From the UHGV virus genome UHGV-1800104: a stretch of DNA of 25,476 nt; one strand, written 5' to 3'. Origin of the DNA: a virus. How positions within the stretch are numbered: the first letter of the stretch is position 1; every line of letters starts with the position of its first letter. Of this stretch, positions 453-22,034 are shown one piece after another. The notes beneath the pieces are model-generated. The model made no database searches, was not told the origin of the DNA, and worked only from the letters and a program-made list of their open reading frames with translations. The position numbers were made by a program, and so were the translations under genes.

Positions 453-740
453 TTATTTTGCTTCCTCAGACTCCGCTAACATGAGGATAGCATGGCGGAT
501 CATATTCAATTTGCTGCGATTATGCTTTTTACTTAACGCATCAAGTACTTGGTACTCGTATTCATTGAAACCAACACGAATAGATTTAAAATCACGTGGA
601 GCGTCCTTATCGAGCACTTTGTTGTCTTCTGGTTGCTCACCCGGCACCAAATCAGCCTTACTGGCAAAATCCTCAATTCGGCGTTCAAGATCGGGGTCTT
701 TTACTTCGGGGGCTTTTACCGATTTACGAGGCTTAATCAC
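453..740 (-). CDS. small partition partner protein (ParG/ParB-like, putative centromere-binding), 95 aa
   Basis: GTG start at 740 overlaps the last codons of the upstream ParA gene and is preceded by AAGGAG about 7 nt upstream on the coding strand. Small charged protein directly downstream of a Walker-type ParA, the usual type Ib arrangement. No specific motif recognised. Confidence 0.5.
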   Translation of the reverse strand: MIKPRKSVKAPEVKDPDLERRIEDFASKADLVPGEQPEDNKVLDKDAPRDFKSIRVGFNEYEYQVLDALSKKHNRSKLNMIRHAILMLAESEEAK

Positions 741-1374
741 TTAATAACTCCTTAACCAACATCTGGATTTCACCTTTAGCTTTCCCGTTGTCCATCTCAA
801 CAACGCCCTTCCCTTCAGCCATGCAATCGCGGTAAACCTTACGATCACGAATGATGGTTTTCAGCAACTTCAGTTGCGGATATTCAGCCAGGTACTCTTT
901 GGCCTCATTAGTTTCATTCACAACCGGATTGGATGGGGCCATTGTTAAGACTGCGAACGCCTTAATGCTAGGATTAGGCATCAGGTCCAAAGCCTCTTCA
1001 AACACTTCAACAAAGTGTGCCAGCGTGTCTAAATCTGGTTGAGATGGTCTGAATGGGACCAACACAATATCTGCAGCGGTTATGCCTGTACGCATCTCTT
1101 TGCTATCGCGCCCGGCTGTATCAACAACTACAAATTCATAACGCTTATCCAGATCGAGAAGTGTTTCTCGAATATTACCAAACTTCTGGACACAATGAAT
1201 TACAGGAGAAACCTCTGCCGTGTTACGGTCAGCTGCCCAGCGGGCAGCTGTTCCTTGCTTGTCTGCATCTAGTAACACTACATCCTTATTTGCGCGGGCA
1301 AGCTCCGCACAGATGTTTACGCTTGTGGTTGATTTTCCACAGCCACCTTTTTGGCTGACTACCAATATAATCAT
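733..1374 (-). CDS. parA: ParA/ParF-family partition ATPase (type Ib, deviant Walker A)
   Basis: MIILVVSQKGGCGKSTTSVNICAELA... carries the KGGxGK[ST] deviant Walker A at the extreme N-terminus, and LLDADKQG follows. I place the start at ATG 1374 (GAGG about 7 nt upstream) rather than the TTG at 1404 given in the ORF track. Confidence 0.85.
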   Translation of the reverse strand: MIILVVSQKGGCGKSTTSVNICAELARANKDVVLLDADKQGTAARWAADRNTAEVSPVIHCVQKFGNIRETLLDLDKRYEFVVVDTAGRDSKEMRTGITAADIVLVPFRPSQPDLDTLAHFVEVFEEALDLMPNPSIKAFAVLTMAPSNPVVNETNEAKEYLAEYPQLKLLKTIIRDRKVYRDCMAEGKGVVEMDNGKAKGEIQMLVKELLSD

Positions 1375-1618
1375 ATCCGTTCCTCGGTGTGATTTTGGTA
1401 TCAAAACGGTTCCAGATAAGAGCCTTTTTGATGCGGGACAGGCTCTATAATGGAGTCATGAATGTTTGGCAAAGTATAACATCAATCAGACCAAATACAC
1501 CTTATATTGCATCCTATTTAACACGAAATCAGCCCTAAATTGGAACCAGATACAAAATTGCACCATAACAGCACCTAACTGGTGCCAGATTAACACTAAT
1601 TAGACACCATTAAGGCAT

Positions 1619-2013: not shown

Positions 2014-2970
2014 TTAACCGATTGCTTTCAGGCCATGAACAAGAGCAAGTTGCGGGTCATCCGCCACGAAGAAACGGTCATCACGAATATTAACTTGCTC
2101 GCGAATTGCATCTGCCACCAGCGGTGCACCACCACCGATCACCATGACATGCGTATATCCTTTAAAGTCGCCAATCACATCAAGAACTCGGGTACGCAGA
2201 CGGTCAATGCTTGCGGCAATGGCCTTTTTCACATCACCAATCGCTGATGGGTCATTGATATTGTCGTTCAGATAATCTTCATCGTGGCGGTTAATAATGA
2301 GCTGATCAACATTGTAATTTGACGTTTCGGTATTGGCCCTTGCAAGTGCTTGCCTTACTTCCCTGGTGACCAGTGATACACCAAGATTCGAATCGCCAAA
2401 AACACGGGAAACTGCCGTCATTTGCCCGGCGACCATTGAAACATCAAGGGTAGTTCCACCCAAATCGATGATAAGAACAGAATGGGCAGGGTTCAGATTG
2501 TCGCACAGGCCAATTCCTGCCGGAATAGACTCCGGTCGTACCGTAACTTTCTTAATCGTGAACACATTGCCTTTATTCAGCGTGACGGGGCGCATAAGGC
2601 TGGCTTTCTTGCGCTCGATGTTATCGAGATTGTATTGCGCGTCGTCGTCGTAAAACTCCGCCAGAGGCAGCGTGACCACAATTTCTACTTCCTGCGGCTC
2701 AATACCGCTTGTCAGCAGGGCATGGTGAACAGCCAGGACGTTAAGCGGGCTGTATTGCCATTCCACGTTATTCGTCGGCAGAACATCTGGCGAGATCAAA
2801 TCATACGAATACTTCTCGTCGTCAATGACATAGTTAAACGGCTTGCCAGCACCAAATGTTGCTGACCATCCGCGCTTAAAGCTGTTAGGACTGATGTGAG
2901 TGCGAGTTTCCCCGTCGTGCTCCCACAGCATTTTGATATTGGTTGAACCATCATCGATAAAAATGCGCAT
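2014..2970 (-). CDS. parM: ParM/StbA actin-like plasmid segregation ATPase
   Basis: MRIFIDDGSTNIKMLWEHDG...HISPNSFKRGW...AVHHALLTSG...IIDLGGTTLDVS...YTHVMVIGGGA tracks R1 ParM closely along its whole length. Start placed at ATG 2970 (GGAG about 7 nt upstream) instead of 2994. Confidence 0.9.
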   Translation of the reverse strand: MRIFIDDGSTNIKMLWEHDGETRTHISPNSFKRGWSATFGAGKPFNYVIDDEKYSYDLISPDVLPTNNVEWQYSPLNVLAVHHALLTSGIEPQEVEIVVTLPLAEFYDDDAQYNLDNIERKKASLMRPVTLNKGNVFTIKKVTVRPESIPAGIGLCDNLNPAHSVLIIDLGGTTLDVSMVAGQMTAVSRVFGDSNLGVSLVTREVRQALARANTETSNYNVDQLIINRHDEDYLNDNINDPSAIGDVKKAIAASIDRLRTRVLDVIGDFKGYTHVMVIGGGAPLVADAIREQVNIRDDRFFVADDPQLALVHGLKAIG

Positions 2971-2994
2971 CTTCTTGCTCCACTTCTGAGACAC

Positions 2995-3200
2995 ATTTGA
3001 GAATCAAAATGTAATTTTAAAAGAGAAGCACCCAAAAATCCACACCAAACGAGACAAAAAAGAGCGCTTGTTGAGTTTATTTTGAGAATATCTTAATCAC
3101 CCACTGAATGATGGCCTGATAGTGAGATTTATTTGAGAATGAATTGAGAATACAAAAATATTCCGAAATTTAACTCTCCGTTTGAATGACGAAATAACAA
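2995..3200. promoter_or_regulatory. parC-like centromere/promoter region with repeated TTGAGAAT motifs, also holding the divergent promoter for the forward operon
   Basis: Exact TTGAGAAT at 2997, 3082, 3133 and 3144, with variants at 3071 and 3182. Pairs are spaced 11 bp apart (3071/3082, 3133/3144), i.e. one helical turn, as in R1 parC iterons. Confidence 0.4.
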
Positions 3201-3236
3201 AGTGATGACAATAGGAGGATAACCAGGAGGTGAAGA

Positions 3237-3521
3237 ATGAGCGCAATAGCCACCAGCGACACCCTTTGTTCTGGTCACGGAGGATTTCCGCCGCGACTGG
3301 TAGCTGAAACCGTTCCCTGGTTCACCGTTAACGGTAAGCCAGTTGTTGTAGATGGTGCCATGTTTCCCAGTCACACTGACGGTAACAGTGCACACCCAGG
3401 GGCAGCTGTATCGACGCGAGTATGGTTTTCGATAGGTGGAAAGGGAGTTGTCTGTGTAGGCGATCCGCTTTCTTGTGGTTCTGTTATCGCCAACGGCGAG
3501 GATATTTTTCAGGTTGCATAA
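3237..3521 (+). CDS. PAAR-like small protein (possible spike-tip protein), 94 aa
   Basis: Strong RBS GGAGG about 5 nt upstream. Contains NGKPVVVDG and VCVGDPLSCGSVIANG, resembling the xARVGD...C...G and G.PTV.I.G elements of PAAR proteins, although no literal PAAR tetrapeptide is present. Confidence 0.4.
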   Translation: MSAIATSDTLCSGHGGFPPRLVAETVPWFTVNGKPVVVDGAMFPSHTDGNSAHPGAAVSTRVWFSIGGKGVVCVGDPLSCGSVIANGEDIFQVA

Positions 3522-4324
3522 TGCTTGATTCAATAGGTGAAGTTAAAGCCTTCAAAATTCTGTCAGATGCCGGTATCTCTACACCAGAATCTATAACCAT
3601 AAGCCGGGCAGCTTCTGTAAAAGCCTCATCGCTCGCCAGCGCCATACAGGGAATAGTTCACGCCGATAAAACCTATCCTGATTCTGTTTCGGCCTGGACT
3701 ACTCAATTGCTTGGCTTTTCTGAACAGCTCAATGAGGCCAGCAAAGCGTCTTCATTACTGGCTGATTCTCTTTCCCCATACACCAAGCCATCAGAGCTGT
3801 TACAGATGAAGATTGGCTGGGAATGCTACGCAAAAGGTAACGAGCTGACCCCCATACCTGCTTTCGCCCTTGTTGAGGGAATGGGGAATGTTTCCATTCC
3901 GCAATCTCTAACGGACGCATTGACGGCGCTAAAACTTGATGCTCTGAAAACCGCCATGAACGCCATTAACGCAAAAATTGAAGCTGCCGGAAGTGCTGGT
4001 GGTGATAGCAATGGTGGGCAGGGTGGTACTGGGGGCGCTCAGGCTCCAGTCATTACTCAGGATGAAATTGATGCTTTACGGGAAGCAGTGACAGCCGCCG
4101 AAGTTTTACTCTCCGAAATTAACTCAGCAAGTGAGAGTGTCGTAGCCCTTGCAGGTCGCATTAAAACGTCAACCACTCAGGCAACCAAAGGTTTAGAGAA
4201 CGCTGTCGCCATCACGTTAACTGGTTCTCTACTGGATGATGCAGTAATGAGTCCGGCAATCAGTTTAATCATGCCACAAGGCGTTATCGACGCGCTCCAA
4301 ACGAACACCAAAAAGGAACCATAG
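3521..4324 (+). CDS. hypothetical protein, 267 aa, translationally coupled to the PAAR-like gene
   Basis: ATG at 3521 overlaps the upstream TAA (TAATG). Ala/Ser/Gly-rich with a GGDSNGGQGGTGG linker. No holin or endolysin motif recognised. The track's 3422 start would overlap the upstream gene by about 100 nt. Confidence 0.6.
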   Translation: MLDSIGEVKAFKILSDAGISTPESITISRAASVKASSLASAIQGIVHADKTYPDSVSAWTTQLLGFSEQLNEASKASSLLADSLSPYTKPSELLQMKIGWECYAKGNELTPIPAFALVEGMGNVSIPQSLTDALTALKLDALKTAMNAINAKIEAAGSAGGDSNGGQGGTGGAQAPVITQDEIDALREAVTAAEVLLSEINSASESVVALAGRIKTSTTQATKGLENAVAITLTGSLLDDAVMSPAISLIMPQGVIDALQTNTKKEP

Positions 4325-4382
4325 CAACACCACTTAGGAACACAAAAGGATGTAAATTGGTACATGTTTAACACCAAAAAAA

Positions 4383-4856
4383 ATGAACCTGAAGAGGATG
4401 GTTTTGAAAAAGATAATTTTGATTGTAATTGCGCTTTTAGCCATTTCTGGAATTTACCGAACAACGACGGCAGTTATCGAACACATCAGGTATGTCCGAT
4501 CGCTTGAAGACTCAAAATCACAACTGGAAAGCACGAACAACACGCTTTCTACCGCATTACAGTTAAGTGAGAACGCTCGCTCAGCCATGCTGACCGAAAA
4601 CGAAAGAATTAAAGCACTGGAAAAGGAGTACCAGCGCAAAACAGCAGAACTGAATGCCAACCTAATCAAACAACGGGAGGAAAGCCAGAATGAAATCACT
4701 CGCCTTGAAAATGCGTTACGCCGTGCTGGGATTAACGATGTGCGTGTGCCTGATGACGTTATCAGGATGCAGCGGGAACGGGCAAAAGCCATCAACCAGC
4801 GTGCCAGTGAAAATTACCGTAGAAGCCACCAGCAAGCCGCAGGCAAATCTGATTGA
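4383..4856 (+). CDS. Rz-like i-spanin (inner-membrane spanin)
   Basis: N-terminal transmembrane segment KKIILIVIALLAISGIY followed by a long charged, coiled-coil-like periplasmic region; an overlapping lipoprotein gene lies in another frame at its 3' end. Start could be 4383 or 4398. Confidence 0.7.
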   Translation: MNLKRMVLKKIILIVIALLAISGIYRTTTAVIEHIRYVRSLEDSKSQLESTNNTLSTALQLSENARSAMLTENERIKALEKEYQRKTAELNANLIKQREESQNEITRLENALRRAGINDVRVPDDVIRMQRERAKAINQRASENYRRSHQQAAGKSD

Positions 4857-5022
4857 TTACTCCCCTTGTTTAGTGCCAGAAGACACGCCAGTGCTGTTAA
4901 ACAAGTATCCGACATACGCTGAACAGCTATTCAGCACGATCGACGAATGCAACCAACGAAACGCACTGAATAACCAAAGAAACAGGGAGATTTGGGAAGG
5001 GAAGGGGGATCAAGGCTCCTGA
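4690..5022 (+). CDS. Rz1-like o-spanin (outer-membrane lipoprotein), overlapping the 3' end of the i-spanin gene out of frame
   Basis: MKSLALKMRYAVLGLTMCVCLMTLSGC gives a positive n-region, hydrophobic h-region and an LSGC lipobox; the mature part is Pro-rich. GGGAGG lies about 9 nt upstream of the ATG at 4690. Confidence 0.7.
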   Translation: MKSLALKMRYAVLGLTMCVCLMTLSGCSGNGQKPSTSVPVKITVEATSKPQANLIDYSPCLVPEDTPVLLNKYPTYAEQLFSTIDECNQRNALNNQRNREIWEGKGDQGS

Positions 5023-5468
5023 AGCCAGATGTCCTGGCTGTCAGCTTCTTCGAAACCGTGACAGACGTTAAAGTCACTCAAACGATACTGACGCTGACGG
5101 CCCCTATTTCGCTCATGCCAATGCATATATCCACCAGCAAATGCCAGCGGACAATCGCTATAGTCTATGTAACCAATACCATTCCCCAAACGTGCTTCGC
5201 GCGCACCAGCTTTCCAGGACAGTAGAAAAGAGTCACGATCCGCCAGCATAACAACAAAATCGTCCGGATCTCCGATACAGTGAAGAATACCTGCCTTACA
5301 TAACTGCTTGAGCGCTTTTGACTGGCTCAGGATGTCTTCTCCGTAATACTGAAAACAATCATCAACAACAGCGGGATAGCCTGCCGGGGGATTCAGGCTG
5401 GTTGGTATAGCTGACGCGATCGCCAGCATTAAGCGATATTGTGTTTTTGATGGGTTAACGTGACTCAT
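5010..5468 (-). CDS. hypothetical protein, 152 aa (second gene of an opposite-strand cassette)
   Basis: Intact ORF with AAGGGA about 4 nt upstream, 16 nt downstream of the preceding minus-strand ORF; no family recognised. Its 3' end overlaps the o-spanin 3' end convergently. Confidence 0.55.
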   Translation of the reverse strand: MSHVNPSKTQYRLMLAIASAIPTSLNPPAGYPAVVDDCFQYYGEDILSQSKALKQLCKAGILHCIGDPDDFVVMLADRDSFLLSWKAGAREARLGNGIGYIDYSDCPLAFAGGYMHWHERNRGRQRQYRLSDFNVCHGFEEADSQDIWLQEP

Positions 5469-5484
5469 TTTGTCCCTTGTTTAC

Positions 5485-5877
5485 TCATTGTCGCCATGCA
5501 TTTTTTAACTCAGGAATATCTGCCATTTCAATTAACTTGCGAAGTCCAGCACTGACTTTCCCATTGCCAACCATAGCAAGCCAATCTCTTACAGCTTTCG
5601 GCATGTAGAGCGTTGCAGTTACCGGCTCTTCAACCCTGGCAGGACATCCGCATACAGGCCATTTAATTGATTCCATAACTTCGGATGCCGGGGTGAGGGC
5701 GGGGACATTGAGTATATCTCTACCAGAAAACTGGATAACGATCCGTTCAGCGAGCGAGAGTATCTCACTTTCGGCAAGAATTGATGCCAACTGCGCCTCA
5801 ACAAGAAAGCGACTTGTTGTGTTCAGAGAGTGGCTCTTAGCGCCATTTTTATACGAAACAAAGATTCGATACGCCAT
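5485..5877 (-). CDS. hypothetical protein, 130 aa (first gene of an opposite-strand cassette); C-terminal segment may be DNA-binding
   Basis: Intact ORF reading away from an AT-rich intergenic region (5878..6035). C-terminal PKAVRDWLAMVGNGKVSAGLRKLIEMA has a helix-turn-helix-like look, which is weak evidence. Confidence 0.5.
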   Translation of the reverse strand: MAYRIFVSYKNGAKSHSLNTTSRFLVEAQLASILAESEILSLAERIVIQFSGRDILNVPALTPASEVMESIKWPVCGCPARVEEPVTATLYMPKAVRDWLAMVGNGKVSAGLRKLIEMADIPELKNAWRQ

Positions 5878-6035
5878 AACTCTAATGATTTGTGTTAGAA
5901 AACTAAAATTAAATCACATAACAACATGCGTGTTAATAGATTTTATTTTACTAAACCTATTGACTAAATCACAAAGTAGGTATTGTTAGCCCGTCAAAAG
6001 AACCTTCACGCCGCGCCCGAATTTAGGGCTTAACC

Positions 6036-7733
6036 GTGAATAAAAACATTCAGCCAGCTCGTGATCGCGAGCGCGAGATTATGAATCGGGCGGCAAGCGT
6101 CATGGCTATGACCGTCGATCCGACCACCGATGCAGCAGGCAACATGATTGCTGACCAGGCAGTAATGATGGAAAACCTGGATAAAGCAATCCAGAAAGTG
6201 CCTATGTTTGAAGGCGTAAATCCAGAGGTCGCTCGTCAGATCACTGGTGGGTGGGCTATGTCTCTGCATGAGTATAAACGTCAACATGGTCATTACCCGG
6301 CAAGTGACATCCTGGCGAACGCACACATGGCTCTTGAACGCCTGATGACTGAATGTGCCAGTGATACCCATGAAGGCACGGGTAAGGCAATGTTTGAGTC
6401 TGTCGCGCAATCAATGCGTAGCTCTGACGGCGTAATGAAAGTTGCTCAATATGCTGCTCTAATTCTGCCTGCCTCTCTGGGCGCTGCTACCAGTGATGCC
6501 TGTACTTTTGTTCCTTGTGATCGTGACGAGTCAAATATTTATGAACTGGTCAACGTAGCAGGCACAAAATTCGGCACCTTCAAACAAGGTGACGAACTGA
6601 ATATGCAGTCAGCTGGTGTTTATTCTCAAATGAAGCGCCTGTATACCCTTTCCACTAAAGGGGATGGCAGCACCAAAACCTTCCAGTTCGACATCCAAAA
6701 TTTTGAGGGACAATCCTGCCCGCTTCGCGCTGGTTATAACAAACTGCTGATCAACCGCAAACCGTCCAAAGTTGACGACGGCGATGGCAACCTTTATTTC
6801 AATGCTAAAGACAGCAAAGGTAATGCTTTCTCAGCGACTGCCAAAGTTGCCTATGACACTGGTGTCATTGACATTACATTTACCCAGGCTCCGCCAGAAG
6901 GTACTGAAATTGCTGTTCAGGTCGAAATTAACATCGAGCGCAATCCAAGCCTGATTCCTGTGATCAACCAGGCTATGCGTAAGTACGAAGTTCGTCCGTC
7001 CCAGTACGTAATTGCTTCCGAACACACGGTAATGTCCGCATCCGATTTAAGCCGTGAGCACGGCCTTGAATTAGCGGCACTTCAGTTCTCCGCGATGCGT
7101 AACTGGATCTCCCATGAAACCGACATCATGCGTCTGCGCACCCTGGTATTCCATACCGTTTATGGTCGTGAATTTGATGTGGCTCTGCCGGAAGCTCAAA
7201 ACTATGAGTCCTGGGTCGGCCTCCTGCGTCACGTAGTAAACGCTCTGTCTCAGGAAATGGCAAATCGTACCCTGACAACGGGGATTCGTGGCGGCTTTGC
7301 TGGTGGTGACGCCGCGAACTTCCTGCGCTCTCTGCCTCCACAGCACTTCCAGATCGCACCAGGTTACGTTCAGTCGCCGTATGTACAGTACATCGGCACC
7401 CTGTTTGGCACGATTCGTATTTACGAAGTGCCGCAACCTGTCTGTGAGCAATTCCAGGCACAGGGATATGACTTCGGGCTGGATGACATCTTCTTCTATG
7501 GGCGTGGCGAAGGCATCGGTAAAGCCGGTCTGATTGCTGGTGATGCAGTCCCAGCAATCCCTTACGTGCACGAAACCAATCCGTCTCTCGTTAACCGTAC
7601 CACTCTCTGGGGCAGTGCCATCAACGAAGTGCATCCTCGCAACGGTGAAAACTACTTCACCCGCCTGCGTCTGACTCGTGCCAAAGAAGGTGCTATCGAC
7701 ATGCTGACAGGCAAGGTTAACGAAAAAAAGTGA
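6036..7733 (+). CDS. major virion protein, 565 aa; putative major capsid protein with a charged N-terminal delta-like region
   Basis: Long ORF at the head of the forward structural block, just upstream of an Ig-like protein gene and the sheath gene. Charged, helix-prone N-terminus. Start is GTG 6036 (AGGG upstream) or ATG 6081. The capsid assignment is by position and size only. Confidence 0.35.
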   Translation: MNKNIQPARDREREIMNRAASVMAMTVDPTTDAAGNMIADQAVMMENLDKAIQKVPMFEGVNPEVARQITGGWAMSLHEYKRQHGHYPASDILANAHMALERLMTECASDTHEGTGKAMFESVAQSMRSSDGVMKVAQYAALILPASLGAATSDACTFVPCDRDESNIYELVNVAGTKFGTFKQGDELNMQSAGVYSQMKRLYTLSTKGDGSTKTFQFDIQNFEGQSCPLRAGYNKLLINRKPSKVDDGDGNLYFNAKDSKGNAFSATAKVAYDTGVIDITFTQAPPEGTEIAVQVEINIERNPSLIPVINQAMRKYEVRPSQYVIASEHTVMSASDLSREHGLELAALQFSAMRNWISHETDIMRLRTLVFHTVYGREFDVALPEAQNYESWVGLLRHVVNALSQEMANRTLTTGIRGGFAGGDAANFLRSLPPQHFQIAPGYVQSPYVQYIGTLFGTIRIYEVPQPVCEQFQAQGYDFGLDDIFFYGRGEGIGKAGLIAGDAVPAIPYVHETNPSLVNRTTLWGSAINEVHPRNGENYFTRLRLTRAKEGAIDMLTGKVNEKK

Positions 7734-8226: not shown

Positions 8227-9885
8227 ATGAATAAGATTAGTTTTTCGGTAGGGCAGGCAGCTGGCGTTGCTGTAATGTCAGTCAATGCTGACGCTACCCT
8301 CACCAATACCAGCGGTGGCGCTTCCGTCTTTGCTGGGCTTGTAATATCGCGTCGTGGCGCACCGGGTAAGGTACTGAAAGTTGACGATACGACTTATCAA
8401 AGCGTATTAGGTTCACCGATTCACCCTCGCCTGGGCGCGGCATTTGAACCATACCGCCACGTGGAGCGTGCAGTAAAAGGCGGTTCTGGATATGTCGTTC
8501 GAGTTTGCGCTAAAGACATGAAGGTACCGAGTATTTCTGTTTCCGTTGTGGGCAGAGCAAAAGCGGCAAAGGCGAGTAAAGAACTTTCCGTTGAACCAAC
8601 TGAAACCACAGTAAATCCAGGTGACACATTAAGCGTTGGTGTTGCTTCAACAGTAACGACTCAATCAGAGGTCTTCACACCAAAAGAGACGCCTCAGATA
8701 AAAGGTGATGAGAAAGCATTATTCTTCATCAAAGATGGTGATGCATCTCAAAATCGCACGTTATCACTAACCCGCGATAATGAAGAAAGCGAACTCTTTA
8801 CGCTGACGCTGAAAGAAAAACAAACTGATGGGTCCATTGAGGTACTGGAAAGCCACCAGGTGTCCTTCAATCCAGAAGGCACTAACGACATGGGCCAACC
8901 TGCATGGATTCCGACACTGCTTGAAAGCCAGTCCACTCGCATTGGTGCCGTGCTGGCAGATGATGCAGAAGCATCTGCTGCTCAACTCATTTTTGAGGAT
9001 GTAGCTTTTGAAGGTGGTACTGATGGCGATCTGTCCACAATTAACACTGAAGACTATCTGGAAGCATTAAAGGTTCTCGAAGCTTCAGAGGTTAATTACA
9101 CCGCATTGCTGTCACTGGGTTGTTATGACGCATCCGCCTTAGCCGCAATCAAAAAGCTGGCTGAAGATGTTCGCGTAGACATGTTCTATGACCTGAAGGG
9201 CAACCAGACACCTGAAAACGCTATTTCAGAAGCGAAAAGCCATAGTTTTGGCGGCTCACATCAACCAAGCCGTTACTACTTCCCGCTTTCCTGCCGAGAT
9301 ACCTTCACTGGGATGAATGTCGTCTATGGCATTAGTTGCGACGCATTCGTAGCGAAAGCAAAAGGAGTTGCGCTGGTACCGGATGTTGGTGGTTGGCATT
9401 ACGCACCCGCAGGTATATCACGCGCAATTATTGATCGACAGAACATTGCCCGAATTCCAAATATCGGTGCAGTTGATCGTGAAGCGTTCGTTCTTGCGCG
9501 CATTAATCCAGTTTCAGTTGCTGCTGACGGGTCCGTTTACATTGACGACTCTTTAACAACTTACAGCAAAAACAACTATCTGCGATTCCAGCATGTGTCT
9601 TCCTTGATGAACGCCATCGCCAGAAATTTCTATGACGTAGCTCAGGCGATTAAGCACGAACCGGATGGCATTACCAAAGAAACGCTCATGAAAGCAATGA
9701 CTGAATTGCTTGACCGTTACGTTGCAGCCGGTGCGCTGGTTACTCCACGTGACAAATCCCAGGGCGAAGATCCATATGTTGTTCAGGTTGTCCAAAAGGA
9801 CATCGATCTGTGGGAAGTGTCCTGGTCTGTTTGTCCGACCGGTACAGCTCGCCGAATCGTCGGTAAGCCAATTCTGATGCGCTGA
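8227..9885 (+). CDS. contractile tail sheath protein
   Basis: C-terminal half follows the conserved sheath-family pattern as I recall it: DYLEALKVL, RVDMFYDLKG, RYYFPLS, GVALVPDVGGWHYAPAGISRAIID, ARINPVSV, YLRFQHVSSLMNAIARNFYDVAQAIKHEP, and a C-terminal LWEVSWSVCPTGTARRIVGKPIL. GAGGA RBS. Confidence 0.75.
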   Translation: MNKISFSVGQAAGVAVMSVNADATLTNTSGGASVFAGLVISRRGAPGKVLKVDDTTYQSVLGSPIHPRLGAAFEPYRHVERAVKGGSGYVVRVCAKDMKVPSISVSVVGRAKAAKASKELSVEPTETTVNPGDTLSVGVASTVTTQSEVFTPKETPQIKGDEKALFFIKDGDASQNRTLSLTRDNEESELFTLTLKEKQTDGSIEVLESHQVSFNPEGTNDMGQPAWIPTLLESQSTRIGAVLADDAEASAAQLIFEDVAFEGGTDGDLSTINTEDYLEALKVLEASEVNYTALLSLGCYDASALAAIKKLAEDVRVDMFYDLKGNQTPENAISEAKSHSFGGSHQPSRYYFPLSCRDTFTGMNVVYGISCDAFVAKAKGVALVPDVGGWHYAPAGISRAIIDRQNIARIPNIGAVDREAFVLARINPVSVAADGSVYIDDSLTTYSKNNYLRFQHVSSLMNAIARNFYDVAQAIKHEPDGITKETLMKAMTELLDRYVAAGALVTPRDKSQGEDPYVVQVVQKDIDLWEVSWSVCPTGTARRIVGKPILMR

Positions 9886-13222: not shown

Positions 13223-13518
13223 TTGAGGGCATTTTTTACATCATCAATTCATCTGTAATGAAGGCATTCTTTACACATTTCAATAATATCAATCAGTTAA
13301 CACAGTGAATGATAATAAAAAAGCGCAATAAGAATGCACGATACGCACGATATTGGTTGAGGGCGATTTTTACATAGTCCTTACATATCAATACGTTATA
13401 TAAAAACACAACTTGCTAATAACAAGATACATGCAATTAAGATGTAAAAATTGCCCTCAATTGCCGATCGTTAAGGGCAAATTCTACACCTTGAGAGGGG
13501 TGTAAAAATTGCCCTTAA
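13223..13518. repeat. iteron array downstream of the initiator gene (about 20-bp units, mixed orientation); candidate copy-control locus
   Basis: Units matching TTGAGGGCAAATCTTACACC: direct at 13223..13242 and 13357..13376, inverted at 13441..13460, direct variant at 13471..13490, inverted at 13499..13518 (overlapping the initiator stop codon). The spacers are AT-rich. Confidence 0.7.
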
Positions 13519-14303
13519 GACTGCTGATAGGTAAATTTTATCCTGGTAACTTTGCCGCCTTCCGTCACCTCTGAGAAGACTATTTTCATTTTTGTATTTT
13601 TTTCAATCTCTGCTACAGCCTTCGTTAAAAAACTTCTCTTAAATTCGGCATACCGCTGATAGCTTTTTGGTAACCCATAACGCTCCCGCATCCATTCGAC
13701 GCCAAGTATGGCAAAGCCGCTTCCATCATCCTTCCTGTACTGGCATAAGGACTCATAAAGCCGCATAGAATAAGGATTTGTAAGGCGAGATACTTCGGTA
13801 AAATTCAGCCTTGTGAATCTCTTATCAAGCAGAGTAAAAAACGGCATGAGATATGGATTAAGATGAATAATGTAAGTCCCGCGCCGTGGTGAATAGGCAT
13901 CCTTAATCATCCAAGGATAAGACTCATAACTGTCTTCTGATTCGGTCGATTCATCAGGGTTATATATCGTAACTTTCTTCTCGCTAAGCCCTGAAATGGC
14001 CTTACGAATATCCTTGCTGGCTTCAGCAGAGGGCAAATTATACATCTCTGCATATTCGTTGACCGTCAACTCACAGGCACCTGAACCAAGAACGCCATCC
14101 TTAGAAGCATAGCGAAGTCTTCCCACCACAATAAACAACAGTCGCTTTTGGTCGCGAGTCAGGTGATAAGCAGCCTCCGTGATCTCATTGGCTTGTGCCA
14201 AACTACGACTAATAGGTGTCGCTGACTCAATCAGGCTGACGGCTTTTGCTGTTAATTCCGCTCTGTTCATAACCCTGTGTGATCCTTCAAATGGTGAGGG
14301 CAA
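13515..14303 (-). CDS. repE: RepE-like (F-plasmid RepFIA-type) iteron-binding replication initiator
   Basis: ITEAAYHLTRDQKRLLFIVV, AEASKDIRKAISGL, SYESYPWMIKDAYSPRRGTYIIHLNPYLMPFF and TNPYSMRLYESLCQYRKDDGSGF closely match F RepE as I remember it. Flanked on both sides by iterons. Start is ATG 14270 or TTG 14303, which lies inside the first iteron. Confidence 0.85.
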   Translation of the reverse strand: MPSPFEGSHRVMNRAELTAKAVSLIESATPISRSLAQANEITEAAYHLTRDQKRLLFIVVGRLRYASKDGVLGSGACELTVNEYAEMYNLPSAEASKDIRKAISGLSEKKVTIYNPDESTESEDSYESYPWMIKDAYSPRRGTYIIHLNPYLMPFFTLLDKRFTRLNFTEVSRLTNPYSMRLYESLCQYRKDDGSGFAILGVEWMRERYGLPKSYQRYAEFKRSFLTKAVAEIEKNTKMKIVFSEVTEGGKVTRIKFTYQQS

Positions 14304-14412
14304 TTTTTACATCACTTTGAGGGCAATTACTACACCTTTTGAGGGCAAATCTTACACCTTTTGAGGGCAAATCTTACACCGATCGTATTTAATTGAGGGC
14401 AAATCTTACACC
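14294..14412. repeat. five direct iterons upstream of the initiator gene (origin and autoregulation region)
   Basis: TTGAGGGCAA(A/T)T(C/T)TTACA(C/T)C units at 14294, 14317, 14339, 14361 and 14393; the first four are on an exact 22-bp period. The core TGAGGGCAA resembles the reverse complement of F iterons (TGTGACAAATTGCCCTCAG) as I recall them. Confidence 0.8.
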
Positions 14413-14554: not shown

Positions 14555-14658
14555 TAATCGCTTCTCGACCGGCAAAGATCTTCATTCAATCCCCATCGCA
14601 AATCACACACTCCCTATCCTCTGGAAAATGAACAGATACCTGCTTTTCGGAGGAATAC

Positions 14659-15494: not shown

Positions 15495-18400
15495 ATGGAT
15501 ATCAGCCCGTTAGCGACGTTGAACAATTACCGCAATGGCGAGCACTCCATATGTCAAAAGCCCTGGAAGAAAAATACAAAGCTCAAGCTGGGAAACGTTG
15601 ATCGCGCTGGTAAAAGAGAGGTTATTTTGAAAGAAAATAAAGACCGTATCGCAATAATTGACGCTATTCAGGAAGCGAGCACAAACGAACTTAAAGCTCT
15701 TGCTGAGGTAAAAGACGCCATTCTTTCTGGGGCAAGCACCATAACTCAACAGGACGAAAGGCAAGGCAGAGTTAGCAACAGACTATCACGCAGGCGTAAA
15801 GACTACGAGCAAAGTACATCTGATAGCGTTAGAGATGTCCAAACTAACCCATATAAAAAACGTCTCCCTGCTAAAAAGGAGAGGGCACCGATAAACCAAA
15901 CCGTGGACCGCTCTATCGTTGCAACGAACACACCAGAAAGTGTTCGCTCTGTGCAATCACGTCAGACCATCCGAAAATCGGACGGTTTTATACCAGTAGC
16001 TGCTAATTCAGCACCTCTTGAACCACAATCCCCCCAAAGTCTAAAAGGCCCGCTGCGGGATAGTAATGGACGTTTTGTATCCCAAAAAAGCAATGAGGAT
16101 GTAGCCAGAAAAAAAGAATTGCAGAACGCACGTAAAGCCGACGCAAAATTACAAGCTGGCTTTCTCAGAAAGCTAGGTTCCATTATGGGGGTAGATGGCA
16201 ATCAGTCTTCCAGTGAAGAGTCTTTAACAAATGCAGCTGGTGTCGGTGCTGGTGGGCCGTTATGGATGGCGGCTCGTGGCATGTACGACATAACTAAAGA
16301 GATCACAGGTAAAGCAGAATCTCTTAAAGAATGGGTAGAAAAGGGGAAAAAAGAAACATCAACCTCGAAAGCGATATCACCAGTAATTACTTATCCGGCG
16401 GCGGTGAATTCTCAAAAATCAACATCTGCAAAAGCGTTCAATAACGCTGTTGAGACAAAATCCGCACAAGCAGTAGAAGAGCAAACCAAAATCCTTCAGA
16501 CCAATGACAACAAAATAATTGATGGTCTGGAAAATGTTTCTGACGAGATAGTTAAGCTTCGGAAATCAGTGTCTTCTGGAAATAAGTTCGGCTTAAGTGA
16601 TCTCTGGAAAAATCGAGCAAGCAGAAGAAATAAAATTAATATTGGTGATCGGGCGGGAAAAAATAAACGGAACAAATCGAAAAGGAAAGGCCGCAATCTT
16701 GGGAAAAAAGCACTCTCCGTTGGCGAAAAAGTTGCTGCCGGTAGCGCTGCAGCTGGCACTGGTGTCGGAACAGCCAAAGCAGTTAAAAATAAGATCAGCA
16801 AACCCAAAGATGTAAGCACTATCAGCGATACATCAAAGGGGATTGCAAAGGAAACAAAAAATACTGCTAAGGCCGTGAAGTCAGCTGGTGTTGTGGCTGA
16901 AGATACTACCATTAAAACCGGCGAAGCCATTGCAAAGAAAAAAACTGAATCTGTAGCCCTCAAAAGTGCTGCAAAAATAGGTGTTAAATCAGCAGCATCC
17001 ACAGCGGCAAGAGCGGTCCCTATCATCGGTTCGCTGGCAATGGCTGGATATGACGCCATAGATGGTTACACAGATACAGAGGCGCAAAAGGCAGCCTTTG
17101 GTTTAAGTGACGATGATGCTGTATCCGAACAGCAAAAAACGGCTTACGCAACAGCTAATGTGCTCGATATGGGGGGCTTGGTGTCGGGCGCAACAAACTT
17201 GATAGGGAAAGGAATTTCTGCGCTAGGATTTGAAAGAGCTGGTGAAAAACTTCAGAATTTTGATACCGGAGATATTGCTCGTGGTGTTAACGGTGCAGTA
17301 GATATCACCAAATCTGTTTTTGGTAGCCTTAAGGATACATTTTTATCCACTGACGAAAACACGAAACAAGTAAAAAAAGCGGTTGAGGATGGCACCAAGA
17401 AGACCGTCGATGCGATTCATTCTTTAGGTGAGCAGCTACAAGGCGGGCGTGATGGTGAAGATGGTGTTGGTGAGCACGGGTATACTTCCCCGGCTGAATT
17501 TAATGCCCCTGCCAGCAACACCATTGCAGCGGATCTGAATATTGGTGGCAGCAACGCTAAAAACCGCAATTACCGGAATAATAACCTCGGCAACCTTGTT
17601 TTCGCTAATCAGGAAGGGGCGGCGCTGGAAGCACCAAATGCAAAAGGTGAACAACGTTTTGCGCGATTTAACACGCCTGAAGAAGGGATCAGGGCGCTGG
17701 CAAACCAGGTGTCAAGCTATTACAACGGCACCAGCGCCGCCGCTGGGTATCAGAAGCTACAGACGGTATCCAGTATTATTTCCAAATGGGCACCCCCAAA
17801 GGAGAACAATACTAATCAATATATTGATAACGTCAGCAAATATCTTGGCGTCTCGCCTAATGAAAAAATAGACGTCAGCAACCCAGAGGTTATGACGCAA
17901 TTAGTTCGTGCAATAGCGACGAAAGAAGGTGGAAACCCGGCGGTTAACAATGAGTTCATAAAGAATGCTCTTGGGGCATTTAACACAAACACTGGTCGAT
18001 GGGAGGGACAATTCTCTGACGAAACATTGGCGCGGATTAATAAAATTCAGAAAGAAAATGGTGGTCAGCTAATTGCCCGCGATTCGCAATATAGTGTTGG
18101 TCGCAAGGTAAAATATGCTAATGGAAAATCTCCAGCTCAACCAGTTTTGAATGCCGTTCCGACAGCAACACAACAGCCAATTGAGGTTGCACAACATGCC
18201 CAGGCAGTCAAAAAGCCACAAAAAACAGGCAATCAATCGCAACCGATTAATCCAGAGAATGTTGATGTTAATACTGGCTCGCCATCAAGTCTGCTTGAGA
18301 GATTAATCGCTATAAATGACAGCGGGGTAGGTAATTTATTTGGAGGTGCGGCTACCAGCCTTGCTGGTACAAGCCTTGGCCTGATTAAGGATTTTGCGTC

Positions 18401-19277
18401 GGCGACTTCGTTTGGTTCTATATCTTCGCTTTCCGAAAAAGCGAAAGGAATGGATCAGGCTCTTACTGAAAAGATATCCAGCTTAACCGGTAAATCTTTT
18501 GGATTTCAAAAAGCAAGCCAGGTAACTGATATAAGAGACGCTTTACAAAAAAGACCAAAAGCTGAACGCGATATGCCTTCAGTGGATCTTCTTTCCGGTG
18601 TTTCTTCGGCAAGTGAGAGTGAAAAAATCTCTGTAAACTCAAGGGGGATTCCAGTTTATGACAATGGATACAAGGTAATTGATGGTGAAGATAAGGGGGT
18701 GCTTGGCTCTTTGTTTGACTCGTCATTAACAGGTCTGAAACGTATTAGCTCTGCTGTGTTACCTGCAATTGGCGATAACGTTTCACAACTTATTGGTGGG
18801 GTAGATGGCACAGGCATTGTTAATGATTTGGTTTATCAGGCTACTGGGCAGAACTCAACAATTGCCAGGGCTATTAGCCCGCTTACCAAGAGCGCCGGTA
18901 GTTGGCTGAATAATGGTATTCAACAAACCGCAGATAGCATTAGAGGTATATCAAACGAAGCCAATAATGCCATATTTGGCTCTGCGTCAGCCGTGCAAGA
19001 ACCTTTTCTTGCTATGCCACCACAGCTTCCTACTGTAACAGATCTCGCACGAAGCGGAATAAGACAACCATTAACTACTGACACTATAAATAACGATCCT
19101 GCTATGTTGAAGGCGCTGGATAACATCTGCTCTATCCTGAACGACCTTCTGAATGTGAACAAGAACAATACAAAAGGCGATCCGGATAAGGTTGTCAAAA
19201 CATCGCAGCCGCAACCGCGACCACGTGCTAGCACAACTATTAATGACCCGTCGCTGGATGCTCTGCTTGAGGATTAA
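15495..19277 (+). CDS. tail tape-measure-like protein, 1260 aa, with an embedded globular domain
   Basis: Very long ORF just upstream of baseplate genes. Lys/Ala/Gly-rich helical regions and hydrophobic Gly-rich segments (GVGAGGPLWMAARG, AVPIIGSLAMAGYDAIDG). An internal block (NRNYRNNNLGNLVFANQEG...SKWAPPKENNTNQYIDNVSKYLGV...ATKEGGNP) looks like a folded domain, possibly cell-wall-interacting. Confidence 0.65.
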   Translation: MDISPLATLNNYRNGEHSICQKPWKKNTKLKLGNVDRAGKREVILKENKDRIAIIDAIQEASTNELKALAEVKDAILSGASTITQQDERQGRVSNRLSRRRKDYEQSTSDSVRDVQTNPYKKRLPAKKERAPINQTVDRSIVATNTPESVRSVQSRQTIRKSDGFIPVAANSAPLEPQSPQSLKGPLRDSNGRFVSQKSNEDVARKKELQNARKADAKLQAGFLRKLGSIMGVDGNQSSSEESLTNAAGVGAGGPLWMAARGMYDITKEITGKAESLKEWVEKGKKETSTSKAISPVITYPAAVNSQKSTSAKAFNNAVETKSAQAVEEQTKILQTNDNKIIDGLENVSDEIVKLRKSVSSGNKFGLSDLWKNRASRRNKINIGDRAGKNKRNKSKRKGRNLGKKALSVGEKVAAGSAAAGTGVGTAKAVKNKISKPKDVSTISDTSKGIAKETKNTAKAVKSAGVVAEDTTIKTGEAIAKKKTESVALKSAAKIGVKSAASTAARAVPIIGSLAMAGYDAIDGYTDTEAQKAAFGLSDDDAVSEQQKTAYATANVLDMGGLVSGATNLIGKGISALGFERAGEKLQNFDTGDIARGVNGAVDITKSVFGSLKDTFLSTDENTKQVKKAVEDGTKKTVDAIHSLGEQLQGGRDGEDGVGEHGYTSPAEFNAPASNTIAADLNIGGSNAKNRNYRNNNLGNLVFANQEGAALEAPNAKGEQRFARFNTPEEGIRALANQVSSYYNGTSAAAGYQKLQTVSSIISKWAPPKENNTNQYIDNVSKYLGVSPNEKIDVSNPEVMTQLVRAIATKEGGNPAVNNEFIKNALGAFNTNTGRWEGQFSDETLARINKIQKENGGQLIARDSQYSVGRKVKYANGKSPAQPVLNAVPTATQQPIEVAQHAQAVKKPQKTGNQSQPINPENVDVNTGSPSSLLERLIAINDSGVGNLFGGAATSLAGTSLGLIKDFASATSFGSISSLSEKAKGMDQALTEKISSLTGKSFGFQKASQVTDIRDALQKRPKAERDMPSVDLLSGVSSASESEKISVNSRGIPVYDNGYKVIDGEDKGVLGSLFDSSLTGLKRISSAVLPAIGDNVSQLIGGVDGTGIVNDLVYQATGQNSTIARAISPLTKSAGSWLNNGIQQTADSIRGISNEANNAIFGSASAVQEPFLAMPPQLPTVTDLARSGIRQPLTTDTINNDPAMLKALDNICSILNDLLNVNKNNTKGDPDKVVKTSQPQPRPRASTTINDPSLDALLED

Positions 19278-21094: not shown

Positions 21095-21940
21095 ATGAAA
21101 GATAATTGGCTTAAGGAACGATTAACTAAAGTAAAACAGGATTCACATCTCTGGAGTGCATTTATAGACGCTTTACAGGATGTCTGGAATGAGGCAGTAG
21201 AACCAATATTAACAAGAATAAGTAATAGAAAATCCTTCTTCACTATGGACAGTGAGGATATGGATGCCCGCATTGCTGAATACGGGCGTTTTTTCGTTAT
21301 CACTGAAAAAGATAAGGCTCGTAGGCCAATGCTGCTGGCACAACGTTTAGATGAAGTGCACTTTAAAGGCACTATCTTGCCAATTGAGCAGACATTCTGG
21401 CGTGAATTCGGTTGTATTCCTGTTAGTTGGGAACCGCTGTATGCACCTGTAAATATAGAAAAACACCCCTATGGTTCATATTTTGCGACCGAAATAGAAA
21501 TACCTACGGCACAGGCTCAATTCGGTGAGTTCTTCCTGACATCAAGGGGGCTGGTCGTTGTTGATCAGAACAAGCTATATCGCTCATATGGAGAGCAGGA
21601 TAAAGAAGCCGCTGTACAGAAATTGTTATCTGACTTCGAAACAGTAATAGCCCCTTTATTGCCATTGCATATTGTTTTTGATGGCGTCTCGTTTCGGCTT
21701 AGTGCTGTATTCCCTGAAGTGGCAGAAATACTAAATTGCTTGTCTACGGATGTTTCGGTAATTGAAGGTGTTTATGTTACTGAGAGTATGGCTGATATGC
21801 TATCCCGTAGTGATACCTCCTGCCAGGTAGACAATATTTCTCTTAACGCCATACCGAACCGAACGGCAGAAAAGCAATTACATCTTGATGTAACCCCACT
21901 CGATGCGTGGCCTTTGGATTACCACCTTCAACCTGTTTAA
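21095..21940 (+). CDS. baseplate or tail protein, 281 aa (gpI-like by position)
   Basis: Starts 10 nt after the previous stop in the same orientation. No motif recognised. Confidence 0.35.
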   Translation: MKDNWLKERLTKVKQDSHLWSAFIDALQDVWNEAVEPILTRISNRKSFFTMDSEDMDARIAEYGRFFVITEKDKARRPMLLAQRLDEVHFKGTILPIEQTFWREFGCIPVSWEPLYAPVNIEKHPYGSYFATEIEIPTAQAQFGEFFLTSRGLVVVDQNKLYRSYGEQDKEAAVQKLLSDFETVIAPLLPLHIVFDGVSFRLSAVFPEVAEILNCLSTDVSVIEGVYVTESMADMLSRSDTSCQVDNISLNAIPNRTAEKQLHLDVTPLDAWPLDYHLQPV

Positions 21941-21943
21941 TAA

Positions 21944-21969
21944 TTCTTCCCCCGCATTTGGGGGAAGAA
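21944..21969. other. perfect 10-bp GC-rich stem-loop immediately after the 281-aa gene
   Basis: TTCTTCCCCC-GCATTT-GGGGGAAGAA begins 4 nt after the stop codon. No T-run follows on either strand. Confidence 0.4.
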
Positions 21970-22034
21970 CAACGGAAATCACAAACTGAGCATACTCTCC
22001 TTTGGTTCATTGCTTATGAAGGAGCTATGTTCGT

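Follow-up and report, generated by a model that had tools for sequence, protein, structure and literature searches.

Genes at the locus

The window analysed here is a 25,476-nt stretch of viral DNA (UHGV virus genome UHGV-1800104). Its region 3000-5100 shares 98.5% DNA identity with Escherichia phage D6 and matches several ~92-kb E. coli plasmids at 100%; in complete E. coli genomes, every place with a match (112/112) was on a plasmid. D6, a myovirus related to P1, persists as a plasmid prophage. Judged by its sequence, the window comes from an E. coli phage-plasmid that is D6-like and related to P1. Rfam and tRNA scans of the window returned no matches. The following features were recognised at the locus, all on the plus strand:

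3192-3212, +, candidate late (Lpa-type) promoter motif AAATAACAAAGTGATGACAAT, ending 24 nt before the ATG of the upfC-like gene
3225-3232, +, strong Shine-Dalgarno sequence AGGAGGTG, read from the sequence, 4 nt before the ATG at 3237
3237-3521, +, predicted UpfC ortholog, a 94-aa PAAR / gp5.4-type spike-tip protein (Pfam, phrog_281 and PDB matches)
3519-3523, +, TAATG stop/start overlap of the upfC-like and upfB-like genes, read from the sequence
3521-4324, +, predicted UpfB ortholog, a 267-aa acidic all-alpha protein (phrog_1559, hhalign, AF2 model)
4383-4856, +, i-spanin (P1 ppfA / Rz equivalent) with an N-terminal transmembrane segment, phrog_214; the start may be 4398
4690-5022, +, o-spanin lipoprotein (P1 mlp / Rz1 equivalent), starting within the i-spanin gene in another frame

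A first-pass annotation of this DNA had proposed that the ORFs for the 94-aa and 267-aa proteins (3237-3521 and 3521-4324) are translationally coupled through a TAATG sequence, and both the coordinates and the overlap were as it described. At the junction GCATAATGCTT, the TAA stop (3519-3521) and the ATG start (3521-3523) have one base in common. The equivalent junction in two metagenomic phage-plasmids (L005 and L006) is TGATG, while P1 and Cronobacter phage JK004 have an 8- or 9-nt spacer with GGAG in place of the overlap, such that junctions in the D6 clade overlap (TAATG or TGATG) and the genes of the P1 clade are spaced apart. In P1 itself the 8-nt spacer between upfC and upfB provides the second gene with its own ribosome-binding site, a clear difference from the overlap in the window. 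A mechanical list of ORFs offered a 300-aa frame from an ATG at 3422 for the second gene; this was rejected in favour of the start at 3521, which is considered correct because ML[D/E/N] at residue 1 is kept in nearly all members of the family.

The cassette encoding a PAAR protein, UpfB, i-spanin and o-spanin was found in five diverged lineages (the window, P1, JK004, L005 and L006), and the P1 gene order upfC-upfB-Rz-Rz1-upfA is that of the window. The length of the PAAR protein is exactly 94 aa in every one of them, and UpfB is 27-50% identical to the window protein (39% and 50% in L005 and L006).

Both proteins have been linked to P1 before. The GenBank record of D6 describes orf57 as 'similar to P1 gene upfC' and orf56 as 'similar to P1 gene upfB', and RefSeq labels the 94-aa product 'PAAR domain-containing protein' and the 267-aa product 'hypothetical protein'. 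The pair is largely explained by homology to P1 UpfC/UpfB, and the present result mainly corrects annotation: at least 15 RefSeq records of E. coli phage-plasmids list the 267-aa product as 'hypothetical', ~100 plasmids carry the region, PHROGs classes the PAAR proteins as morons and homologs are named 'phospholipase' in some records. By homology to P1, both proteins can now be named tail spike-tip components.

The 94-aa protein is a predicted ortholog of P1 UpfC

The 94-aa protein had been described as PAAR-like from sequence elements, and profile searches agreed with that description at different strengths. Pfam PF05488 (PAAR_motif) was marginal (27.2 bits against a cutoff of 27.0), while matches to phrog_281 (E 8e-29) and to the PDB chain 9vyi_A, labelled 'UpfC' (E 1.4e-35), were strong. 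The same PDB search returned T4 gp5.4 (5iv5_ZA, E 1.4e-5) and, more distantly, the T6SS-related PAAR protein 4jiv_D (E 0.017). Homologs were found in 388 phage records, mostly as gp5.4 from T4-like phages.

Aligned over all 94 residues without gaps, P1 UpfC (PDB 9vyi, 9vzk) is 57% identical to the window protein. Residues H14, H46, H53 and C80 are invariant across the five orthologs, and in the HMMER alignment they line up with the equivalent three His and one Cys of T4 gp5.4. In solved PAAR proteins the residues at these positions, near the apex of the cone, are metal ligands; the conserved H14, H46, H53 and C80 probably bind a metal ion there in the window protein also. A single-sequence AlphaFold2 model of the 94-aa protein was uninformative (pLDDT 36.6), and a conical beta-fold is instead predicted from the 57% identity to the solved P1 protein. 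Taken together, the 94-aa protein is identified by homology as the ortholog of P1 UpfC, a predicted spike-tip cone homologous to T4 gp5.4. It resembles P1 UpfC in length, in the His/His/His/Cys set and in the position of its gene upstream of upfB and the spanin genes, and differs from it in surface residues, which have diverged. Compared with T4, where gene 5.4 adjoins the spike gene, the PAAR gene of the window does not.

The 267-aa protein is a predicted ortholog of P1 UpfB

The 267-aa protein matched phrog_1559 (E 5.7e-110), a family whose label carries no function, and had neither a Pfam or NCBIfam match nor a significant PDB sequence match. A word-indexed search recovered relatives down to 37% identity, all from the D6 clade; several of these, some among the most diverged, sit on contigs of 80-95 kb. 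P1 UpfB was reached by tblastn at 27% identity over 97% of the query. Comparison of a 23-sequence family profile with P1 UpfB using hhalign gave a probability of 99.9% and an E-value of 2.4e-32 over 257 collinear columns, and this collinearity takes in a central Gly/Ser linker. The 267-aa protein is thus assigned, on this homology, as a full-length ortholog of P1 UpfB.

When 1.84 billion representatives were searched exhaustively with an HMM, only 72 UpfB-family clusters were found, with the P1 clade included. Most of the cluster representatives are 240-272 aa long, the rest being shorter pieces and one 907-aa protein, and most start with ML[D/E/N]. As sampled by this search, the UpfB family is small and uniform in length. 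Its conserved positions are M1, L2, G18, Y52, L93, G99, W100, M146, N150, A221, A228, A246 and P252. Within the D6 clade the block LLQMKIGWECxxKGN is strongly conserved, whereas P1 keeps part of it as LLQLDIGWDVYCRAN.

The protein carries a net charge of -11, and its composition includes A 14.6%, S 11.2%, G 7.9% and T 7.9%. Hydropathy analysis detected no transmembrane segment, and the Pfam and NCBIfam searches no muralytic domain. An AF2 model built from 23 sequences (mean pLDDT 81.9, pTM 0.73) was all-alpha, with ten helices, one of them 59 residues long (180-238), and pLDDT fell below 50 at residues 160-172, consistent with a disordered linker. The picture of the 267-aa protein is thus of an elongated, purely helical bundle, acidic in charge, whose linker is flexible and rich in Gly. 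The earlier description of a low-complexity, Ala/Ser/Gly-rich protein suits only the Gly-rich linker at ~155-175, as the rest is predicted with confidence to be a helical bundle. Likewise, calling the protein unknown was fair from the sequence alone and has been superseded by the literature on P1 UpfB.

P1 UpfB (262 aa) and the window protein (267 aa) are alike in all-alpha prediction, acidity, Gly/Ser linker and gene position. They differ in how they are known: P1 UpfB has been placed by cryo-EM, whereas the D6-type protein is known from its gene and a predicted model. Being 27% identical with the same architecture, the D6-type and P1-type proteins make a natural comparison set for functional surfaces.

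Hub and spike genes lie in a separate operon

The first-pass annotation had remarked that the pair is detached from the baseplate module, and that this module contains no hub or spike gene between the tape-measure and wedge genes. Both observations held. The tape measure Sit occupies 15495-19277 in the window, and the ORFs after it match P1 PmgA, BplA and Gp16 (PDB 9ay5/9vzk), the three proteins that form the wedges in the P1 baseplate structure (PMC12810830). No hub or spike gene was found between the tape measure and these wedge genes.

Orthologs of the hub and spike are instead encoded in a separate upstream operon. In D6, ORFs of the 7-24-6-5 operon match the P1 hub Gp6 (E 7.6e-72) and the P1 spike Gp5 (9vzk_q, E 2.9e-55). 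In an identical plasmid this operon lies beyond the window, ~7.3 kb upstream of the PAAR gene, and the gene at the gp5 spike position is annotated 'baseplate protein'; rdgC, a methylase gene, glnS and partition genes are found between the operon and the PAAR gene. The separation of the pair from the baseplate genes, like that of the spanins from holin and endolysin genes, is the normal, scattered P1-type layout.

UpfC and UpfB in the P1 virion

Work on P1 provides the context for these assignments. A link between P1 UpfC and T4 gp5.4 was made by HHpred in 2022 (PMC9024508), and a preprint of 2025 independently placed UpfC at the needle tip (bioRxiv 10.1101/2025.07.21.665459). In the cryo-EM study of P1 from January 2026, the spike consists of a gp5 trimer capped by a UpfC monomer, and an alpha-helical 'novel tripod' on the spike tip was assigned to UpfB by fitting an AlphaFold3 model into medium-resolution density of extended mature virions; the role of the tripod was given as speculation (PMC12810830). 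The copy number of UpfB in the tripod is reported differently, as 'three trimeric' (PMC12810830) and as 'three copies' on UpfC (PMC13611949). A single study places UpfB in the virion (PMC12810830), from a fitted AlphaFold3 model rather than a built atomic one, and UpfB was not among the chains matched in the PDB.

Genetic and proteomic data on P1 are also available. Deletion of upfC still allowed plaques to be made (PMC9024508), and CRISPRi in 2023 found upfB, upfC, ppfA and mlp to be non-essential (PMC10695390). LC-MS/MS of P1 virions did not detect UpfC, and UpfB is absent from the main text of that proteomics paper (PMC9024508). The same analysis also missed gp5 and gp26, low-copy proteins known from structure (PMC9024508), and because UpfC, gp5 and gp26 all escaped detection the negative proteomics is weak evidence.

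By analogy with these P1 experiments, the D6-type pair would be located in the virion and be dispensable for plaque formation. Since P1 UpfB and the window protein are only 27% identical, the virion location is transferred to the latter conditionally.

Spanin genes and lysis functions

The pair is followed by two genes that had been read as a spanin pair, in line with what we found. The ORF at 4383-4856 matches the Rz-like phrog_214 (E 7.6e-16) and has a hydropathy of 2.48 at residues 6-24, as expected of its transmembrane segment; its alternative start at 4398 is that of the RefSeq plasmid annotation (PGAP). The ORF at 4690-5022 has the lipobox LSGC at residues 24-27 and matches the Rz-like spanin families phrog_456 and phrog_30284. 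An overlapped arrangement of this kind, with LSGC or LSAC, was also present in P1, JK004, L005 and L006, and in P1 the i-spanin position is occupied by a gene annotated Rz. The window pair is like lambda Rz/Rz1-type spanins, with a transmembrane segment and coiled-coil region in the i-spanin and an overlapped o-spanin lipoprotein gene. As neighbours of the UpfC/UpfB pair, the spanin genes are not part of it.

It had further been noted that the spanins have no recognisable holin or endolysin nearby, and this is borne out by the two flanking minus-strand genes, neither of which matched a holin or endolysin family. Elsewhere in its genome, D6 has a lysozyme gene as well as a holin and an antiholin gene that resemble lydA and lydB. 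The window spanins, like P1 ppfA/mlp, are therefore not clustered with the holin and endolysin genes.

A candidate late promoter upstream of the cassette

P1 late promoters have been described as Lpa-dependent, with a conserved element. The motif upstream of the upfC-like gene follows the pattern AAATMACAMAST-N4-ANNNT, which was also found in the window before gene 23 (5966), pmgB (14600) and R (21976). As this pattern was derived post hoc from the four window sites, the shuffle statistic of that search is circular. An independent check was made on D6 DNA outside the window, where the motif occurred before mat and before gene 7, in both cases on the coding strand and intergenic. The PAAR genes of the diverged loci L005 and L006 are preceded by variants that keep the AAAT[A/C]ACA-N7-hexamer spacing. 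A scan for promoters and terminators over 2900-6100 returned nothing above chance.

An Lpa homolog is present in D6, and on the basis of this homolog and the recurring motif we infer that the cassette is a late operon. The genes from the upfC-like gene to the spanins are thus probably transcribed late from an Lpa-type promoter, for which the motif is the candidate.

A predicted spike-tip pair and alternative explanations

Taken together, these observations make it highly likely that the pair forms the distal tip of the tail device with which a D6-type phage-plasmid, related to P1, punctures cells. One copy of the UpfC cone would cap the blunt end of a trimeric, beta-helical gp5-like spike, and UpfB would attach to the PAAR cone to form a three-legged 'tripod' beyond the spike tip, as in P1. 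Both genes would be translated as a coupled pair and transcribed late together with the downstream spanin genes, and their products would be made late and at low copy number. Upon sheath contraction, the spike, tip and tripod would enter the outer membrane first. The tripod may have a role in envelope penetration.

The first-pass annotation had left two possibilities for the pair, a spike-tip protein with an attached partner or an unrecognised lysis component. The former is the one favoured by UpfC/UpfB homology and P1 cryo-EM, while the latter did not survive. A lysis role would make the 267-aa protein a factor acting with the spanins (a spanin regulator, an antiholin-like protein or an unrecognised endolysin) and not a virion protein. 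Its gene lies directly upstream of the spanin genes, a linkage kept in the five diverged lineages, and the spanins of the window have no adjacent holin or endolysin, both of which would suit such a factor. Nevertheless, a protein lacking a transmembrane segment and a catalytic or muralytic domain is a poor holin or endolysin, the D6 lysis genes lie elsewhere and the tripod density of P1 fits a virion protein; we consider a lysis function extremely improbable and reject the holin/endolysin reading. Much the same very low probability applies to UpfB being an assembly chaperone or adaptor that loads or shields the hydrophobic PAAR tip while the tail is assembled and is absent from mature particles, modelled on the Eag/DUF4123 adaptors of T6SS. 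Coupling of upfB to the PAAR gene and the silence of the P1 proteomics main text (PMC9024508) are in keeping with a chaperone, but the tripod density to which the UpfB model was fitted comes from mature extended virions (PMC12810830), and an absence from LC-MS/MS data that also missed UpfC, gp5 and gp26 carries little weight (PMC9024508).

A T6SS-like arrangement of PAAR protein and cargo deserves somewhat more consideration, though it is still very unlikely. Here UpfB would ride on the tip as an effector and pass into the periplasm or cytoplasm of the infected cell, with possible roles in anti-defence, superinfection exclusion or host takeover, instead of a mechanical part of the needle. T6SS PAAR proteins likewise form a cone on a trimeric beta-helical spike with extra protein on its faces, and they bear effectors on the cone (PMC12407873); UpfB is on the outside of the tip (PMC12810830), is not needed in the laboratory, which is often true of accessory effectors (PMC10695390), and has diverged in sequence much faster than the PAAR protein (D6 against P1 lineage: 27% identity for UpfB, 57% for the PAAR protein). 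However, Pfam and NCBIfam searches found no enzymatic or toxin domain in UpfB, its predicted fold is a plain helical bundle, and the uniform length and architecture of the family are unlike those of modular effector families. Unlike a T6SS PAAR-effector, the pair belongs to a phage tail context in which the partner of the PAAR protein is separate, helical and non-enzymatic. The NCBIfam model T6SS_PAAR (NF033420) scored 34.2 bits against the 94-aa protein, far below its cutoff of 124, the genes surrounding the pair are phage and plasmid genes, and T6SS genes are absent from the D6-type genome. A reading of the pair as a T6SS moron was also rejected. Nothing specific supports either the cargo-effector or the chaperone reading.

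Beyond the spike-tip assignment itself, UpfB tripods might be one case of a wider, so far unrecognised class of helical accessory proteins on phage PAAR tips, an idea that we regard as unlikely. T4 gp5.1 is a further helical PAAR-tip candidate, from AlphaFold3 modelling (PMC13611949). DUF7217 proteins are further candidates with a weak resemblance to the 267-aa model: comparison of this model with viral models using Foldseek gave weak full-length matches to DUF7217 (E 1.4e-3, TM 0.44-0.53), while the Pfam DUF7217 model had no match to UpfB-family members even at E 10, and a literature search on DUF7217 found no mention of it. Were such a class to exist, its members might act on the cell envelope; they could, for instance, sense first contact, destabilise the outer membrane or serve as docking legs in the periplasm. 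This activity might count on natural hosts even though laboratory E. coli does not require it. The conserved linkage to the spanin genes would in that case point to a common module for crossing the envelope and not to a historical accident.

Tail tip proteins and cell-wall digestion

Homologs of the spike-tip PAAR protein (3237-3521) carry the labels 'phospholipase', 'PAAR motif of membran proteins' or 'hypothetical' in public records, and the PHROGs category of the family is 'moron, auxiliary metabolic gene and host takeover'. This category is misleading, because the protein is a structural component of the tail.

Structure comparison of the model of its neighbour UpfB (3521-4324) revealed a weak, full-length similarity to DUF7217 proteins from Pectobacterium phage Wc4, Serratia phage 3M and Escherichia phage FEC14 (E 1.4e-3 to 0.4, TM 0.31-0.48), and this modelled likeness hints that other myoviruses may carry analogous helical proteins at the tail tip. 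A sequence-level link between UpfB and DUF7217 was not found, nor was any literature on such a relationship. For P1, published descriptions of the UpfB tripod are inconsistent in their stoichiometry, one giving a 'three trimeric tripod' (PMC12810830) and the other 'three copies of UpfB' (PMC13611949); UpfB was not found among the deposited chains that could be matched.

The tape-measure protein Sit (15495-19277) contains a lytic transglycosylase-like region at residues ~680-860. For the spike ortholog, the match is to P1 Gp5 (210 aa), a protein that according to the P1 papers has no counterpart of the lysozyme domain of T4 gp5 (PMC12810830, PMC9024508). Taken together, these observations assign the predicted cell-wall digestion activity of the tail to the tape measure rather than to the needle. 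Elsewhere among the tail genes, a 222-bp tandem repeat (2.1 copies, 79% match) is present at 23153-23616 within the tail fibre (S-like) gene, which extends past the end of the window.

Partition genes, candidate late promoter motif and plasmid replicon

Plasmid maintenance genes lie both upstream of the PAAR gene and within the tail gene region:

733-1404, minus strand, short ParA-like ATPase (phrog_164)
1662-2006 and 2014-2994, minus strand, ParM/StbA-like partition operon
13515-14303, minus strand, Rep3-family initiator gene, adjoining 22-bp iterons

At least five copies of TTGAGAAT, embedded in longer repeats of 18-21 nt, were located at 2987-3154, in the divergent intergenic region between the ParM/StbA-like operon and the PAAR gene. 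They probably serve the ParM/StbA-like system as its parC-type centromere and operator, and they overlap the stretch that immediately precedes the candidate late promoter of the PAAR gene. The ParA-like ATPase, which a note in the phage D6 record likens to P1 ParA over its C-terminal third, is encoded beside this ParM/ParR-type system, suggesting that the phage-plasmid may hold pieces of two partition systems.

A motif, AAATCACA-N7-(T/C)Annn(T), is common to sites on the coding strand before five genes:

Window 5966-5986, coding strand, before gene 23
Window 14600-14620, coding strand, before pmgB
Window 21976-21996, coding strand, before R
D6 4991-5011 and 9698-9718, coding strand, before mat and gene 7

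Judged from sequence, this motif is a candidate for the D6-type Lpa-dependent late promoter.

Approximately four iterons of 22 bp (TGAGGGCAAATCTTACACCTTT) were identified at 14295-14380, with a further copy near 14387. Because they lie beside the Rep3-family initiator gene, the plasmid replicon is placed inside the tail gene region, with the tube genes on one side and pmgB/sit on the other.

Annotation of the o-spanin gene and its convergent neighbours

Full-length o-spanin open reading frames with LSGC or LSAC were found in all five lineages (window/D6 type, P1, Cronobacter phage JK004 and two metagenomic phage-plasmids). The RefSeq plasmid record leaves the gene without any annotation, while the D6 and P1 records place its start downstream, such that the signal peptide and lipobox are cut off. 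The o-spanin regions concerned and, in the window, the genes following are:

Window 4690-5022, o-spanin
RefSeq E. coli plasmid 13399-14011, o-spanin
D6 21802-22023, o-spanin
P1 (MH422554) 5277-5417, o-spanin
Window 5010-5468, minus strand, conserved phage gene of unknown function (phrog_8101)
Window 5485-5877, minus strand, conserved phage gene of unknown function (phrog_7830)

Neither of the two conserved genes had a match in Pfam or NCBIfam searches. Both converge on the spanin genes, and the phrog_8101 gene shares 13 nt with the end of the o-spanin reading frame.
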